A stretch of DNA of 61,433 nucleotides, counting the filler, from an uncultured bacterium (lineage in GTDB: Bacteria > Hinthialibacterota > Hinthialibacteria > Hinthialibacterales > Hinthialibacteraceae), in the NCBI GenBank assembly GCA_964449065.1. It is 5 parts of 5 records of this genome, joined end to end, with 100 filler letters (N's around TTAATTAATTAA, not from the genome) between each part and the next. Parts side by side here need not be neighbours in the genome. Positions count along the whole stretch, not along the records: positions 12,480 to 24,728 come from CAYVAZ010000148.1; 4 more parts are not named here. The stretch is one strand, 5' to 3'. The notes under the pieces are model-generated. The model worked only from the letters and a program-made list of their open reading frames with translations, did no database searches and was not told where the DNA came from. The position numbers were made by a program, and so were the translations under genes. Within the stretch, counting starts at the first letter, position 1. The number at the start of each line of letters is the position of its first letter. Positions 8,397 to 49,310 of the stretch are shown here, piece by piece.

Positions 8397-9533
8397 ATGA
8401 ATTCACTAAAAGAGCAAATCCAGGAGCAAGCTGCCATCCTTTCCGCGATCGGTGAAGGCTCCGCCGATGCCATTACTCAAGTGGATAAAAACCTACGCAT
8501 CATCACGTGGAGCCCCGGTGCCGAGAAAATGCTTGGCTATTCGGCCAAAGAAGTTATCGGGAAACCTGTTGATTTAATTATGACGCCCGAAGTGCGCGAA
8601 CACGAACTGGAACGCATTCAAAAACAGTTTGACGGTGAATTGGGCGCCATCAATGTCGAGACGGTCCGGCTAAGAAAAGACGGCACTCCCGTTCACGTGC
8701 AAATGACACGCATCCCCATGATCAGCAGCCAGGGAGAAACCTCCACTTTGTTGGCGGTCTTAAAAGACATTACCAAAGAAAAAGAACTTCGCAGAAAAGT
8801 CGAACTCTTGGAACGCAATCAAGCCATGTCTAAAGTGGCGGCCAAAGTGGCCCATGAAATCCGAACCCCTTTAGGGGTCTTATTTCTAAAAAGCGACCTC
8901 TTGGTTGAGCGCCTAAGTGTAGTGTTTGATGAATGGGGCAAGGGAAACGTTGACACTCATAAAAAAGCGCTGGAAAAATACGTTACCGATATTCAAAGGC
9001 AAGTCTCCCGCTTGGAAGAAATCGCCAACAACTATCTTCATCTCTCCAAATCCCGAACCATGGAACGGCAAGATGTGGATGTGGAAGCATCCCTGAACGA
9101 AATGCTTGCCGAATGGAAAGAACAGTATAAAGACGAAGACATCGTATGGCATCTGGAAAATAAAACCAAGCCGTTATCCTTGTTTTTAGATCCCCAGCAA
9201 ATCCAACGGGTCTGCTTCAACTTGGTTCGGAATTCCGTGGAAGCGGTTCGCTCAAATGATGAGGAAGCCAAAGCAATAGGGATTCGGATGGATTCGGATG
9301 AGCGGTATTTGCATTTAACCATCTGGGATAACGGACCAGGCATTCCGCAAGAAATCCGGGAAACCATCTTTGATCCCTTCACCACCACAAAAAGTATTGG
9401 CACTGGGCTGGGATTGTATTTGGTCCAGGAAATCGTTCGGAATCATGGCGGCGAAATCACCCTTGAGAGTGAAGAGGGAAAGGGAACTTCCGTGAAAATT
9501 TCTATTCCGCTTGAACCGGAGAAACAAACGTGA
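8397..9533 (+). CDS. PAS-domain sensor histidine kinase (cytoplasmic)
   Basis: PAS (WSPGAEKMLGYS), H-box AHEIRTPL, N-box NLVRNS, DNGPGI, FDPFTTTK and GTGLGL. Confidence 0.95.
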   Translation: MNSLKEQIQEQAAILSAIGEGSADAITQVDKNLRIITWSPGAEKMLGYSAKEVIGKPVDLIMTPEVREHELERIQKQFDGELGAINVETVRLRKDGTPVHVQMTRIPMISSQGETSTLLAVLKDITKEKELRRKVELLERNQAMSKVAAKVAHEIRTPLGVLFLKSDLLVERLSVVFDEWGKGNVDTHKKALEKYVTDIQRQVSRLEEIANNYLHLSKSRTMERQDVDVEASLNEMLAEWKEQYKDEDIVWHLENKTKPLSLFLDPQQIQRVCFNLVRNSVEAVRSNDEEAKAIGIRMDSDERYLHLTIWDNGPGIPQEIRETIFDPFTTTKSIGTGLGLYLVQEIVRNHGGEITLESEEGKGTSVKISIPLEPEKQT

Positions 9534-10903
9534 GTAGACGAAATGTGTTAGTGATAGATGATGAACCTGATTCCAGAGAAGTCGTCTTCGATTCACTGGA
9601 AGGCAGAGGGTATTCGCTTTTAGAAGCGCCGTCCGGCGAAAAAGCCCTCACCATTTTTGCGTCTCACGAAATCGACTTGGTCATTTGCGATCTTGTATTG
9701 CCAGGCATGGGCGGCATCGACATCTTGCAAAAAGTAAAGGAAATCAGTCCGGATACCGAAGTGGTCATGCTCACCGGCTTTGCCACGGTCGATTCCGCTG
9801 TCGAGGCCATGCGCTTGGGCGCGTTTGACTACATCACCAAACCCATCCGGCTTAAAGAACTGCGGCTGCTGATCGAACGCGCTCTCGAACACAAACGCTT
9901 CGGCGAAGAACGGGACGAATGGCGCCGCCAAGTCGCACGCTATTCCGGAAGATTTGTCGGCAAATCGGCCGCCATGAAAAAAGTCTTCCACATCATCGAA
10001 CAAGTGGCTCCCACCAACAGCACGGTGCTAATTACCGGCGAAACAGGAACGGGAAAAGACCAGGTCGCCCGCGAAATCCATGAACAAAGCCGCCGCAGCC
10101 ACAAGCCGTTAGTCAAAGTTGACTGTGCCTCTCTCCCCGAATCGTTGTTGGAATCCGAACTGTTCGGTCATGTGCGCGGCGCATTCACCGGTGCGGTAAA
10201 AGACCGCAAAGGCCGCTTTGAACTCGCGGATGGCGGAACAATTTTTTTAAATGAAATTGGGGAAATGTCAGCCGGTGCCCAGCAGCGCTTGCTACGCATT
10301 TTGCAGGATTCTGAACTGGAACGGGTGGGCGACAGCCAAACCATACATGTCGATGTACGCGTGATTGCCGCCACCAACAAAGATCTCACCAAATTAATCC
10401 GTGAAAACAAATTTCGCGAAGACTTATTTTACCGTTTGCGTGTCGTACAAATTCCGTTGGCGCCCCTGCGTGAGCGTCAAGAAGATATACCGGTTTTGGC
10501 ACAAGTGTTTCTTAAGCGGTACAGTGAAGAAACCAATAAAAACCTGTTAGAATTTAACCCGGAAGTGCTGCAAATTTTCAATCGGTATCCTTGGCCGGGG
10601 AATGTACGCGAACTGCAACATGTTGTCGAAAACATCTCGATTTTTGCAAAAGGAGAACAAGTTACACTGGATGACTTGCCGCAAGAAATTCTGGGAAATA
10701 TGCCGGAAAATGATATCCAAACTCAAGAAATTCAGGAAGATAGACAAAATATGATTTGCATCCCAATCGGATCAACCCTAGAAGACGCCGAACTCCAAAT
10801 CATCCGGAAAACCTTGGATAGTGTCGGTGGAAATAAAGAAAAAGCAGCGCGCGTTCTAGGACTATCCAGAAGTTCTCTATACCGTAGACTTCCAAAATTG
10901 TAG
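9530..10903 (+). CDS. Sigma54-dependent response regulator (NtrC/AtoC family)
   Basis: REC domain, Walker A GETGTGK, ESELFGH, GAFTGA, WPGNVREL and a Fis-type HTH; Walker B reads FLNE. Confidence 0.95.
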   Translation: MSRRNVLVIDDEPDSREVVFDSLEGRGYSLLEAPSGEKALTIFASHEIDLVICDLVLPGMGGIDILQKVKEISPDTEVVMLTGFATVDSAVEAMRLGAFDYITKPIRLKELRLLIERALEHKRFGEERDEWRRQVARYSGRFVGKSAAMKKVFHIIEQVAPTNSTVLITGETGTGKDQVAREIHEQSRRSHKPLVKVDCASLPESLLESELFGHVRGAFTGAVKDRKGRFELADGGTIFLNEIGEMSAGAQQRLLRILQDSELERVGDSQTIHVDVRVIAATNKDLTKLIRENKFREDLFYRLRVVQIPLAPLRERQEDIPVLAQVFLKRYSEETNKNLLEFNPEVLQIFNRYPWPGNVRELQHVVENISIFAKGEQVTLDDLPQEILGNMPENDIQTQEIQEDRQNMICIPIGSTLEDAELQIIRKTLDSVGGNKEKAARVLGLSRSSLYRRLPKL

Positions 10904-12379: not shown

Positions 12380-12479
12380 NNNNNNNNNNNNNNNNNNNNN
12401 NNNNNNNNNNNNNNNNNNNNNNNTTAATTAATTAANNNNNNNNNNNNNNNNNNNNNNNNNNNNNNNNNNNNNNNNNNNN
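12380..12479. other. Artificial contig linker
   Basis: N-run + TTAATTAATTAA + N-run, 100 nt, repeated identically four times. Confidence 0.99.
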
Positions 12480-12551
12480 GAAGTCGTTTCCTGGGCAATC
12501 AAACGAAGCAATCGGTTAAGCCGTTTACCCCAACAGAGTTACAAATGTAAG

Positions 12552-12622
12552 CCAGGGGCAGAGTGACCGAAGGGAACGCCGCCCCTGGAAATGTGAGAGA
12601 AAATCTGACCCCGAAAGGGTCA
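12552..12622. repeat. REP-like double hairpin
   Basis: CCAGGGGC...GCCCCTGG (12552-12588) and TGACCC...GGGTCA (12606-12622). Confidence 0.55.
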
Positions 12623-12879
12623 AAGAAATGAGTAGGTTCTTTAAGTCAATGGCATTGGGGAGGGATCAAAGACAATCTCTTTCTATCTACGCAAACCTCA
12701 ATTGCTCTAGCGGCGTGTTCGCGAAATATAAGCGAAAACGAACGTATCTGTATTTGCTCTTGGTTCCGGTCGGATTTTCGATATGACCGCAATGGGCTGG
12801 GGTCACCAGTTTTACCCTGCCGAATTGAGCAAACTCCGCAGACGTTTCTATGCCAAATTAACTGAACAACCGTTCACTT

Positions 12880-12896
12880 CTGGCACGCAACTTGCA
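12880..12896 (+). promoter_or_regulatory. Sigma54 (-24/-12) promoter
   Basis: CTGGCACG-CAAC-TTGCA matches the consensus YTGGCACG-N4-TTGCW exactly; predicted TSS about 12907. Confidence 0.8.
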
Positions 12897-12906
12897 GTAT
12901 TAAATT

Positions 12907-13443
12907 TCAACAGCATTTCCTGCGCAGGAAGAAATTCGCTGTAAAGCAGTACAAAACGTATCTTCAAGGCAGTGATCCACCGCTCCATATGGGAACCGGA
13001 TTTCACTGGCCGCCGCGGCGAGGACTTCACAGACCGCGCAAGCGTACCTCATGCGCTTGAGGCTAAAATACCCGGTCACCCCCGGACGGTCTTGCCGCGC
13101 GCCACAGACAGGCAACGGTGGCGTGATGTAAAAATTTGATGCTCTTTCAGATCATGAGGCAAGGTTGGAGACAACTTGATTTGAAGTATGGAATCAAGTA
13201 CGCGTGCGCTGCCAAGAGATTGGTCATTGGCGGCACGCCAAGAGATAAGAGCATATGGGAGTGAAGTCGCTATGCTCTCAAGCGTTGTAGATGGTAACTT
13301 CTTACCGGCTTTGTTTTACGGTAAGGAACTCTGTCTCTCCTGCAATCTCCTCCAATGGGGAAGCTGCCAGCAAGCCTTGGATACGATTTGAAGCAGTCGT
13401 CCGTTGTGGTAACAGAAGCAAGCGCATGTTGGGCGCCCAACGT
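12907..13443 (+). ncRNA. Candidate large structured ncRNA or long 5' leader (family unrecognised)
   Basis: Follows the sigma54 promoter, has no protein-like ORF and contains at least eight stems, some nested. Boundaries are inferred. Confidence 0.45.
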
Positions 13444-13621
13444 ATTTAAAAAAAGAAAGAAGAAAGAGAAGAAAGATGATAAACAAACAACAAGCCAAGA
13501 AAAGCCCCTAGTATTGTGTCAATCTAAAAATGACGGCTGGCTATCCGTTGTTTCCCCCCTTGATAAGGGGGCTAGGGGGATTCAAAAATCATCGCAGCCC
13601 ACCCACTCTCAAATAAGCCCT

Positions 13622-13646
13622 GGGAGGGCGAGGCTCCCGCCGAGCC
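13622..13646 (+). repeat. REP-like 25-mer GGGAGGGCGAGGCTCCCGCCGAGCC
   Basis: Variants at 15776-15799 (-), 31498-31521 and 39097-39121, all intergenic. Confidence 0.8.
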
Positions 13647-13781
13647 AGCGGCACGCTTTCCTACCCGATAATCCCTATAAAATCGGTATAAAACTCTAAG
13701 AACTGAGTATGCCCCCATCGTTATTCGCGTGAATTCTCGTGTATTCGCGGTTTCAAATGTGGTGCAGGCTTCCAACATGCA

Positions 13782-13957
13782 AAAGCCTTTGGGGGAGATG
13801 TCCGACGCCAGGAGGACAGAGGGGGTGTGAAGAGAGCCATAATCCGTAAAGTAATAAGTCAGCCGTTTGAAGAAAGTTTTCCCCTTAGCATTCAAATGAA
13901 GGAATCATGGTTAGCCGATTTGATTTTAGTGAACAATCCAAATTAGAAATGGCATAA
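13782..13957 (+). repeat. Dispersed repeat family A, copy 3 (diverged)
   Basis: TTTGGGGGAGATGTCCGACGC...GAACAATCCAAATTAGAAATGGCATAA. Confidence 0.85.
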
Positions 13958-14043
13958 TCAAGTTGGAAATCAGCATTACCAGGCCTAATAGTGTTAGTCT
14001 TTCGCTATATCCCTCAACGCTTTATCTGAGGGTTCGGTGCTCG
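13956..14043 (+). repeat. Dispersed repeat with CCCTCA...TGAGGG hairpin
   Basis: Near-identical to 49367-49452; diverged inverted copy near 49131-49170. Confidence 0.85.
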
Positions 14044-14191
14044 ACACTCACCGCCGGTGATCCTCCAACTCATCTTCCGGCAGAACCCATTCTGTATATA
14101 TGTTTGCATCACTCTTGGCAATATTCATTTCAAAACCAAATCATTCTTCACCTGTCCATCAAATAAATATCTCCATTTTTTGCTCTGTGGG

Positions 14192-14197
14192 TATAAT
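14192..14197 (+). promoter_or_regulatory. -10 box of the rnpB promoter
   Basis: TATAAT 6 nt before the P1 stem. Confidence 0.6.
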
Positions 14198-14203
14198 AAA
14201 ACA

Positions 14204-14545
14204 CGGGGGAGGAGGCGGCCGCGGGTGGGCTTTGGCTCACGCGAGGAAAGTCCGGACTCCACCGGGCAGGACGCTGGGTAACACCCAGGAGGGGAAACCC
14301 TACGGAAAGTGCCACAGAAAACAAACCGCCTTTGTCCAAGGTAAGGGTGAAATGGTGGGGTAAGAGCCCACCGCGGTTCCGGGCGACCGGGCCGGCACGG
14401 CAAACCCCGTCCGGAGCAATGCCAAGTAGGAGAGGTAGGAGCGGCCCGCTCCGCTGAACTCTCGGGTAGGCAGCTGGAGGCGTCTGGCAACAGACGCCCT
14501 AGAGGAATGGCCGTCCACGACAAAATCCGGCTTATCCCTCCCCCG
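14204..14545 (+). ncRNA. rnpB: RNase P RNA, bacterial class A
   Basis: GAGGAAAGTCCGGACTC, GGAAAGTGCCACAGAAAA, AGGGTGAAATGGTGGGGTAAGAGCCCACC, GGCAAACCCC and AAATCCGGCTTAT; P1 pairing CGGGGGAGG/CCTCCCCCG. Confidence 0.98.
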
Positions 14546-14565
14546 TTTTTTCAAGTGGTCAGTGT

Positions 14566-14664: not shown

Positions 14665-14728
14665 GATCATTTTCATATAAGACTTGAAGACCCTGATGGT
14701 ACATCAAACTAGAAATTGGAGGTACGTT

Positions 14729-15670
14729 GTGAAAGTATTTAATAATCTAATCATCAAAATTGCTTTAGTGATACTTGTAAGTTATGCTTTTAACGATTCT
14801 ACAGCACAAAATCGAACTGAGTTAGAAATAAAATACAATAAAGAAAATGGAGTATCACAAATAGTAGAGAGGAATTCTGAAAGCGTTAATGTTGTTCAAT
14901 CTACGAACAATATTTTACGATCATTAACCATATCATATGATGGCTCTTACTATGCTGTCATTATGGTGAACCATGAAATCAATTATCCTGATAAATATCC
15001 TTCACCGGAATTTAACCGTAAATTGATTGTCTATGATGAAAATCATGAAACGGTGATGGAAATACTTAATGTATTTAGGTATACTTGGTCGCCAACAGAA
15101 TCAAAACTCGCTGTGATTATCGGTGAAGATATTGAACCGGGATTTAGATCGAAAGAAACATATGTGTATAACGTTTTAGATCAAACAAAATTTGAAATTC
15201 CTGTTATCGCTTATGATGTTGTATGGGCGATGCATGACAACAAGATTTATACAATGAATTTTGCAGAAGGTGTTTATGTGTTTGAACCGAGGAGTAACAC
15301 CTTACAAAAAACGTCTTATACCGGTATTTATTTTTCCCCGGATGGGAAATATTATTTTGAACCGATATATGACGGTGCCTTTTTTGCTGTACGCAAAACA
15401 TCTAACAATGAGAAGGAAGAGACTCACCCTCTGTTAAAAGAAGAATATCTCCAACCGTATGGTTGGCTTCTTCAGACGAATTGTTTGGTGTCTCGTCAAC
15501 ATCCTCATGATCATTCATTCATTATTAATGTAGAAAACGGTCAGAGTGAGATTATCAACAAGGAGCCAGCTCGTGGAGGGGGGAATGGCCTTATTCCTCT
15601 AGATTTCTTAGGTGCCCGGAAAGCGGAAATTCTTCAGTCGTTAGATGTAAACATACCGGAAACGGATTGA
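14729..15670 (+). CDS. AT-rich exported protein, possibly beta-propeller (TolB/PD40-like)
   Basis: GGAGG RBS and GTG start, signal peptide, recurring ISYDGSY, WSPTESKL and FSPDGKY motifs. Confidence 0.7.
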   Translation: MKVFNNLIIKIALVILVSYAFNDSTAQNRTELEIKYNKENGVSQIVERNSESVNVVQSTNNILRSLTISYDGSYYAVIMVNHEINYPDKYPSPEFNRKLIVYDENHETVMEILNVFRYTWSPTESKLAVIIGEDIEPGFRSKETYVYNVLDQTKFEIPVIAYDVVWAMHDNKIYTMNFAEGVYVFEPRSNTLQKTSYTGIYFSPDGKYYFEPIYDGAFFAVRKTSNNEKEETHPLLKEEYLQPYGWLLQTNCLVSRQHPHDHSFIINVENGQSEIINKEPARGGGNGLIPLDFLGARKAEILQSLDVNIPETD

Positions 15671-24728: not shown

Positions 24729-24828
24729 NNNNNNNNNNNNNNNNNNNNNNNNNNNNNNNNNNNNNNNNNNNNTTAATTAATTAANNNNNNNNNNNNNNNN
24801 NNNNNNNNNNNNNNNNNNNNNNNNNNNN
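24729..24828. other. Artificial contig linker
   Basis: Same 100-nt N/TTAATTAATTAA spacer. Confidence 0.99.
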
Positions 24829-36979: not shown

Positions 36980-37079
36980 NNNNNNNNNNNNNNNNNNNNN
37001 NNNNNNNNNNNNNNNNNNNNNNNTTAATTAATTAANNNNNNNNNNNNNNNNNNNNNNNNNNNNNNNNNNNNNNNNNNNN
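36980..37079. other. Artificial contig linker
   Basis: Same 100-nt spacer. Confidence 0.99.
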
Positions 37080-49210: not shown

Positions 49211-49310
49211 NNNNNNNNNNNNNNNNNNNNNNNNNNNNNNNNNNNNNNNNNNNNTTAATTAATTAANNNNNNNNNNNNNNNNNNNNNNNNNNNNNNNNNN
49301 NNNNNNNNNN
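49211..49310. other. Artificial contig linker
   Basis: Same 100-nt spacer. Confidence 0.99.

Follow-up and report, generated by a model that had tools for sequence, protein, structure and literature searches.

A sigma-54 promoter, perhaps orphaned, among transposon remnants upstream of rnpB in an uncultured bacterium

What becomes of a perfect sigma-54 promoter when no recognisable gene follows it? The question is raised by a locus in a 61-kb window (61,433 nucleotides, the whole stretch of DNA that was analysed) from the assembled genome of an uncultured member of the Hinthialibacterota (GenBank GCA_964449065.1; G000 below). A preliminary description of this DNA had reported an exact sigma-54 promoter ahead of hairpin-dense DNA, and had proposed a novel large structured non-coding RNA or, as a fallback, the long leader of a gene lost to repeat insertion. 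We put the probability at about one half that the promoter is an orphan whose cargo has been removed or has decayed, leaving unconstrained DNA downstream. Activity of the promoter, past or present, the loss of a cargo and the lack of function downstream are steps we infer from the sequence. A new class of large RNA would have mattered, and the tests run here do not support such an RNA. The locus serves instead as a cautionary case, since in repeat-rich metagenome-assembled genomes (MAGs) a perfect promoter followed by ORF-free palindromic DNA (ORF, open reading frame) can be a residue of transposon traffic.

The promoter and the palindrome against it

The sequence TGGCACGCAACTTGCA matches the -24/-12 consensus exactly, as had been claimed, and is the sole match to TGGCAY-N5-TTGCW in the whole window. 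A bare consensus match is by itself weak evidence for a promoter, since G000 as a whole contains 15 such matches, 7 of them within ORFs, against about 10 expected by chance (our own arithmetic), which is barely an excess. The call was nevertheless strengthened by what lies around the match. Within 12711-13506, only the 43 nt from 12859 to 12901 match any of 40 related genomes; they align at 85-86% identity (E 1.2e-6) to two places in one relative, G005, and cover exactly the promoter and a palindrome, TGAAC-N4-GTTCA, that abuts the -24 element (Table 1). The aligned block reads TGAACA-N3-GTTCACTT, then one or two bases, then TGGC..G-N4-TTGCAGTA. Across 35 genomes of the phylum the exact extended pattern has four occurrences: the present site, one on contig C394 of G000 and two in G005. 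A reversed-pattern control occurs nowhere in them. A looser pattern, searched in one genome per species, gave four loci, two titled Candidatus Omnitrophota MAG, one Korobacteraceae and one uncultured bacterium. The promoter pattern without the palindrome matched metagenome contigs twice, both times inside coding sequence and without a palindrome nearby, and we took these matches as chance.

In all six places with this architecture, which carry three different lineage labels, the palindrome stands 3-5 nt ahead of the -24 element, and at five of the five sites other than ours a protein gene begins 30-110 nt downstream. The two G005 promoters precede paralogous proteins of 139 and 119 aa, and the promoter in the uncultured bacterium (L026) precedes a homologue of these two. 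Behind the Korobacteraceae promoter (L025) lies a CxxCH-rich secreted protein, and on the side driven by the C394 promoter there is a 197-aa protein with a weak helix-turn-helix match. G000 also encodes sigma-54 (PF04552 match on contig C88, 202 bits) and has 22 Sigma54_activat (PF00158) matches, 17 of which score above 130 bits. Since the palindrome and promoter are shared with promoters that precede genes, and since rpoN and activators are in the genome, we regard this as a real, regulated promoter type and the promoter at 12881-12896 as probably genuine. Judged from the usual spacing alone, transcription would start near 12907.

The palindrome is the only conserved site upstream of the promoter, and a scan of 12690-12910 for inverted repeats of at least 8 nt found none. 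Activator sites for sigma-54 usually lie at -80 to -150, and we know of no description of a promoter whose -24 element is touched by a palindrome. A regulator at TGAAC-N4-GTTCA, if it exists, would act unusually close to the promoter for sigma-54 control, and the position of the palindrome directly against -24 in six promoters is a lead of wider interest.

Three of the downstream proteins form a small family of 119-139 aa: L010:211-630, L013:1569-1928 and the L026 member, which lies on the minus strand about 37 nt past its promoter and is cut by a contig end. An N-terminal block, ..F.P..KE...L...F......R..W.K, is common to all three, and both G005 members end in a PLRPxDLNNGLV tail. The two G005 members matched nothing in Pfam, and a search for them in G000 gave nothing convincing. 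A profile of the family scored below zero on all six frames of the DNA behind our promoter.

An ORF-poor island between mobile-element remnants

What, then, follows the promoter? A search of G000 against itself found 12711-13506 to be single-copy, and we delimited a unique island of about 0.65 kb (~12845-13506) within 1.7 kb of mobile-element debris ahead of rnpB. We scored codon usage against reference sets from the same genome, in which real coding chunks score 0.21 +/- 0.13 and spurious ORFs -0.19 +/- 0.17. No ORF of at least 35 codons in 12480-14200 scored above 0.004, which bears out the earlier statement that there is no credible ORF. Frame 0 has open stretches of 64 and 68 codons whose scores, near 0, fall between the two distributions. 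Pfam gave nothing above cut-off for 17 stop-to-stop translations of the island. A HMMER search with the frame-0 read-through (the longest open stretches and an 11-codon ORF at the end of the island) found 0 matches at E <=0.001 in 1.84 billion representative proteins, and the other five frames, searched against 20 genomes of the family, gave one 19.9-bit match that we took as chance and otherwise only the transposase fragment described below. A decayed protein gene was looked for with Pfam, HMMER and the 20 genomes, and no frame of 12897-13506 resembled a protein or a family.

Nucleotide comparison was equally unproductive. When 12900-13506 was compared with 19 other family genomes, only the purine-rich tract at 13428-13493 matched; the matches, in G010, G013, G016 and C32, are of low complexity and were rejected as chance. 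One of them precedes a gene that, by its translation, resembles a 2-oxoacid:ferredoxin oxidoreductase. A 26-nt exact pattern from 13364-13389 had 0 matches in metagenome contigs. Thus the homologues for which the preliminary description had suggested a search were not found for the stretch behind the promoter, in 40 relatives, 19 family genomes and a metagenome scan, beyond this low-complexity tract.

Both flanks of the island are debris of miniature inverted-repeat transposable elements (MITEs) and insertion sequences (ISs), recognised by their many copies, their terminal inverted repeats and a transposase relative. On the left, the contig starts inside a MITE-like repeat of ~310 bp with terminal inverted repeats CAATGTCATTGACT / AGTCAATGNCATTG. 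The own-genome search (query positions 1-225) found at least 12 copies at 90-94% identity, and an alignment of eight copies shows the shared element and the points at which they diverge. Copies, of which there are dozens (for example G000:C376:3412-3640, C231:2408-2636 and C131:2821-2997), have an internal GC-rich hairpin region. Next comes a broken transposase N-terminus, recovered in the own-genome search as C148:149-337 (E 3.8e-5, 1 TGA), the first part of which overlaps the repeat and the remainder of which (12707-12816) is single-copy in the assembly. Its read-through aligns at 44% identity over 63 aa (BLASTP, E 4e-10) to a 489-aa transposase of G016 and at 59% over 27 aa to a 469-aa protein of G011, and 12736-12817 aligns to L050 at 73% DNA identity over 82 nt (blastn). 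The full-length G016 and G011 relatives carry DDE_5 and DDE_Tnp_1 domains (Pfam), and the G016 transposase lies in a 1610-bp element present in two copies. The G000 assembly holds only fragments of such a gene, another being at C63:18046-18348. Since the right end of the MITE overlaps the start of the transposase-like frame, the MITE may have arisen from an IS701-like element by deletion.

A 36-nt motif at 12808-12843 has only two copies in the genome (<=4 mismatches over 24 nt). The second lies on C178 beside an end of the MITE-like repeat, so the element-derived stretch probably extends to ~12845, just under 20 nt upstream of the palindrome. We also considered 12783-12944 as the 3' end of a gene, first suggested by a protein-level likeness of QFYPAELSKLRRRF to QFYPADLSEMRTRY (C178), and rejected it because the C178 copy, beside the MITE end, is also non-coding. 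On the right, a repeat cluster of ~550 bp begins 610 nt downstream of the promoter. Its boundary, at 13507/13508, is marked by nine loose contig ends in X1, a public DNA run introduced below, whose depth over the cluster is 100-980. Repeats do therefore start directly after the island, as had been noted.

RNase P RNA lies downstream, where the preliminary description had placed it. Its surroundings in 19 of 20 family genomes vary from genome to genome and none is like the window; the neighbours are not conserved, and most often the end of a protein gene lies near the relatives' rnpB. Non-coding DNA has therefore accumulated locally here, to 1.7 kb. Just past rnpB is a 328-codon ORF (14684-15670, + strand) without a Pfam match that was left unmasked by our codon-score mask, which called all of C148:1-3345 non-coding; it could be a foreign or a spurious gene.

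Taken together, these observations suggest the following account. The segment 12863-12896 would be a sigma-54 promoter by descent, with -24/-12 elements and an abutting palindrome that is probably bound by a regulator. Such a promoter would normally stand 30-110 nt ahead of a small, fast-evolving protein gene; here it appears stranded in a single-copy scrap between transposon remnants, its former cargo presumably removed, decayed beyond recognition or never functional. The 0.6 kb behind it may now be unconstrained spacer with a few palindromes that vary between strains, and the promoter, if it still fires, would yield an untranslated read-through transcript and not a discrete structured RNA. 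The fallback of the preliminary description, a leader whose gene was lost to repeat insertion, fits the context better than its main proposal did, with debris on both sides, although no remnant of a lost gene can be recognised. Sigma-54 sites that head no operon have a precedent in Salmonella, where 58% of 70 mapped sites fall within coding sequences (PMC3844500).

Table 1. Features of the locus and places sharing the palindrome-plus-promoter architecture (window coordinates unless a locus is named)
Feature	Position	Strand	Remarks
Sigma-54 promoter	12881-12896	+	-24 TGGCAC (12881-12886), -12 TTGCA (12892-12896); exact consensus
Palindrome TGAAC-N4-GTTCA, candidate regulator site	12863-12876	+	abuts -24 element; same position at five other loci
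Six places of the architecture	window 12863-12897; G000:C394:3929-3894 (L022); L021/L024; L023/L027; L025:1501-1534; L026:311-345
Single-copy ORF-poor stretch	12897-13506	+	candidate RNA of the preliminary description; matches only itself in the genome
Variable segment	13172-13240		69 nt replaced by ACC in the X1 variant; carries two hairpins
Four-hairpin cluster	13174-13327		three with perfect 7-8 bp stems; sole part with excess stability, on both strands
Hairpin with perfect 14-nt palindrome GTTGGGCGCCCAAC	13426-13443 (palindrome 13428-13441)		followed by ATTT and an A-rich/purine tract; no canonical terminator
ORF, 39 codons	13272-13391	+	GGAG 10 nt upstream; best small-ORF candidate with a ribosome-binding motif
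ORF MINKQQAKKSP, 11 codons	13476-13511	+	final sense codon and stop fall at the repeat boundary or within the repeats
Right part of ~310-bp MITE-like repeat	12480-12706	+	cut by contig start, ends near 12662; then a second small repeat of ~45 nt
Broken DDE (DDE_5 / DDE_Tnp_1) transposase N-terminus	12628-12816	+	residues ~6-66 of 489; in-frame TGA
36-nt motif	12808-12843	+	one other place: C178:4046-4013, minus strand, beside MITE end
Cluster of at least 3 multi-copy repeat families	13507-14059		takes in the left portion of the ~310-bp MITE-like family; dozens of copies at 75-97% identity
rnpB, bacterial RNase P RNA class A	14203-14550	+	Rfam RF00010, 317.4 bits, E 4.3e-103

Folding, strain variation and competing readings

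Does the island fold like a functional RNA? All ten stem pairs listed in the preliminary description are present where it placed them, and its statement that no tmRNA, 6S, SRP, riboswitch or intron signature can be recognised also stood: at the gathering threshold Rfam found RNase P only and nothing in the island, and up to E = 10 it gave two weak matches, both in the left repeat on the - strand and none in the island. The region as a whole, however, does not deserve to be called hairpin-dense. On the + strand, 12905-13450 has a minimum free energy (MFE) of -183.4 kcal/mol (z -1.42), a stability that 7 of 100 shuffles attain; for the - strand z is -1.30, and 11 of 100 shuffles attain it. Five of the ten stems do contain one G-U pair on the + strand, but since the difference in MFE between the strands is mirrored by their shuffles, leaving no strand asymmetry, the argument drawn from these pairs for a + strand RNA does not hold. 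In a scan by 120-nt windows the sole exception is 13120-13320, with z -3.2 and -3.7 on the + strand and -4.5 and -3.3 on the - strand. In the non-coding background of G000, 7 of 260 random 120-nt windows have z <=-3.5 and 11 of 260 have z <=-3, so that it is unremarkable for fourteen overlapping windows to include one or two of this kind. A terminator scan found none on the + strand and three terminator-like sites on the - strand; shuffles gave 3.2 sites on average.

The perfect palindrome GTTGGGCGCCCAAC occurs once in G000. A near-identical 27-nt stretch, including the A-run, is found in another genus (L018, G016:C91:65253-65279; E 0.008, possibly chance). We rejected an integron attC reading of the GTTGGGC/GCCCAAC arms at 13428-13441: for an attC site, the core-like words are in the wrong order and overlap.

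Strain variation gives a second view of the fold. Among public sequencing runs, no RNA run was listed as containing the locus, and one DNA run, X1, labelled as microbial mat, contains 0.49 of the sampled words of the locus; its contigs possibly come from the sample behind the genome assembly and so lend that assembly no independent support. A variant contig of X1 (record 2, 562 nt, depth 6) covers 13059-13171 and 13241-13536 and has ACC in place of the 69 nt between, which carry the hairpins ACTTGATT/AATCAAGT and GCTGCCAA/TTGGCGGC. The hairpin CAAGCGTA/TGCGCTTG at 13040-13058 has other letters there, and 13059-13171 has 10 differences (of 113 positions) and one gap, about 9% divergence. The longest stem of the preliminary description has a CG>TA change (13098-13099) in its 3' arm, with no listed change in its 5' arm. 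Hairpins that vary between strains argue against a conserved fold.

Several points weigh against an orphaned promoter with idle DNA behind it. Between the two strain variants 13241-13536 is nearly identical (1 difference in 296 nt), which could reflect constraint, or recent exchange or recombination. The local hairpin cluster is real against shuffles: five perfect 7-mer stems were observed against 0.83 in shuffles, and 5 of 500 shuffles attain five. The lost cargo is our own construction, since no search turned up any remnant of such a gene, and likewise it is we who infer that the island is silent or functionless. The large protein library was searched with frame 0, the other five frames being compared with Pfam and the 20 genomes. 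The relatives compared belong to other genera, and relatives at the family level share almost no non-coding DNA, so that missing conservation says little.

A first rival is a lineage-specific sigma-54-dependent non-coding RNA of ~0.55-0.6 kb, starting at ~12907, controlled by a palindrome-binding regulator or an enhancer-binding protein and acting through the hairpins at 13174-13327. It would account for a promoter that looks genuine ahead of no credible ORF, for the excess stability at 13120-13320, for perfect stems beyond those of shuffles and for the near-invariant 13241-13536, and small RNAs that depend on sigma-54 are established, GlmY/GlmZ among them (PMC3045617). Yet the overall fold is ordinary and alike for the two strands. 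The local signal, no weaker on the - strand than on the +, is matched by background windows. The + strand has no terminator, Rfam gives no match, no homologue turned up where we searched, and two of the four clustered hairpins are absent from the strain variant, in which the further stem at 13040-13058 is replaced. We therefore consider such an RNA unlikely, and the novel large structured RNA originally proposed found no support in overall stability, homologues, terminator or variant. A more specific version, in which a ~0.6-kb lineage-specific RNA is governed by a palindrome-binding regulator through a promoter architecture shared by few genes in at least three distantly labelled lineages, seems to us quite unlikely.

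Similarly doubtful is a real but unrecognisable small protein or leader peptide, encoded by the 39-codon ORF or by the 11-codon ORF now cut by a MITE, or a lineage-specific gene riddled with stops in frame 0. The sister promoters drive small proteins without a Pfam family above cut-off, so homology searches would miss a relative. The open stretches of frame 0 score near 0, the indel between strains nets 66 nt and keeps the frame, and the stop codon of the 11-codon ORF lies inside the repeat; that this ORF ends where repeats start had been described correctly. On the other side, no ORF scores as coding, the start codons behind the sister promoters stand at 30-110 nt, as against 365 nt for the nearest candidate here that has a ribosome-binding site, and frame 0 has no match in the protein library. 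The ORF at 13272-13391 has no support besides its ribosome-binding motif, the variant also carries a 1-nt gap and paired residue-changing substitutions, and an indel of a multiple of three has a one-in-three chance. Fusing the 11-codon ORF across the repeat cluster to 14060-14166 was tried and rejected, since the boundaries could be off by a few bases and codon scores in that DNA are negative.

Could the join between the island and rnpB be an assembly artefact created by multi-copy MITEs, with the true downstream partner on another contig? The window is a chain of separate contigs joined by linkers N44-TTAATTAATTAA-N44 at 12380-12479, 24729-24828, 36980-37079 and 49211-49310, and two features with a linker between them are not physical neighbours. 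The contig with the promoter and island, C148, begins at 12480, about 400 nt from the promoter, and genes left of 12380 are therefore not its neighbours. A sigma-54 activator gene at 9530-10903 (+ strand; PF00158, 244 bits) lies on the preceding contig, C147, and comes close to the promoter only because contigs were joined to make the window. Contig ends are the usual place for assemblies to break at repeats. G000 (5.2 Mb, 87% complete) is unusually laden with repeats, its interspersed repeats being very numerous, and about 1.09 Mb falls outside confident coding frames by our crude codon-score mask; this load is probably the reason for its 515 contigs. C148 itself starts inside a repeat, a cluster with dozens of copies separates island and rnpB, and no X1 contig bridges that cluster, record 2 ending 29 nt into it. 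An artefact is improbable all the same. X1 depth over the island (2-9) and the rnpB flank (~4) is alike, and even if the join is chimeric, 610 ORF-free nt would remain between the promoter and the first repeat, which does not remove the puzzle.

Finally, the promoter-like sequence could be inactive, having arisen by chance or being a dead copy without an activator site, but we consider this very improbable. In its favour, consensus matches in G000 barely exceed chance, no long inverted repeat lies upstream, and transposon debris makes up the DNA from -45 upstream, so that an enhancer of the classical kind at -80 to -150 has probably been lost. Against it, palindrome and promoter are shared by six places, which cannot be chance, and the C394 promoter precedes a gene despite a repeat 75 nt upstream, so that a distant enhancer may not be needed.

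Comparison with known systems

The promoter resembles known sigma-54 -24/-12 promoters in its exact TGGCAC-N5-TTGCA, in its GG and GC ten bases apart, and in belonging to a genome with rpoN and many activators. Like many sigma-54 sites of Salmonella Typhimurium, it is one behind which no operon starts (PMC3844500). It differs from such promoters in having a palindrome against -24 instead of enhancer sites ~100 nt upstream, and from intragenic sites in lying in non-coding mobile-element debris.

A sigma-54 promoter without a protein gene behind it also recalls GlmY/GlmZ, Qrr, CrcZ and NrsZ. Like GlmY/GlmZ, Qrr, CrcZ and NrsZ are sigma-54-dependent small RNAs, and these RNAs are 100-400 nt long, are conserved across species and have defined terminators. 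The candidate RNA here would be ~0.6 kb, with no terminator, no conservation found and no Rfam match, unlike GlmY/GlmZ/Qrr-type RNAs. Activator sites of GlmY/GlmZ lie upstream of the promoter (PMC3045617).

The flanks are like MITEs and IS701-like (DDE_5) insertion sequences, with a ~310-bp inverted-repeat element and a DDE transposase fragment. The 0.65-kb island between them differs in being single-copy and in matching no mobile element found; it may be cargo or a remnant of the target. Its hairpins at 13174-13327, in contrast to repetitive extragenic palindromic (REP) sequences and bacterial interspersed mosaic elements (BIMEs), are not repeated in the genome and are mutually dissimilar in sequence, but they are like REP/BIME palindromes in being short perfect hairpins in series, equally stable on both strands and variable between strains.

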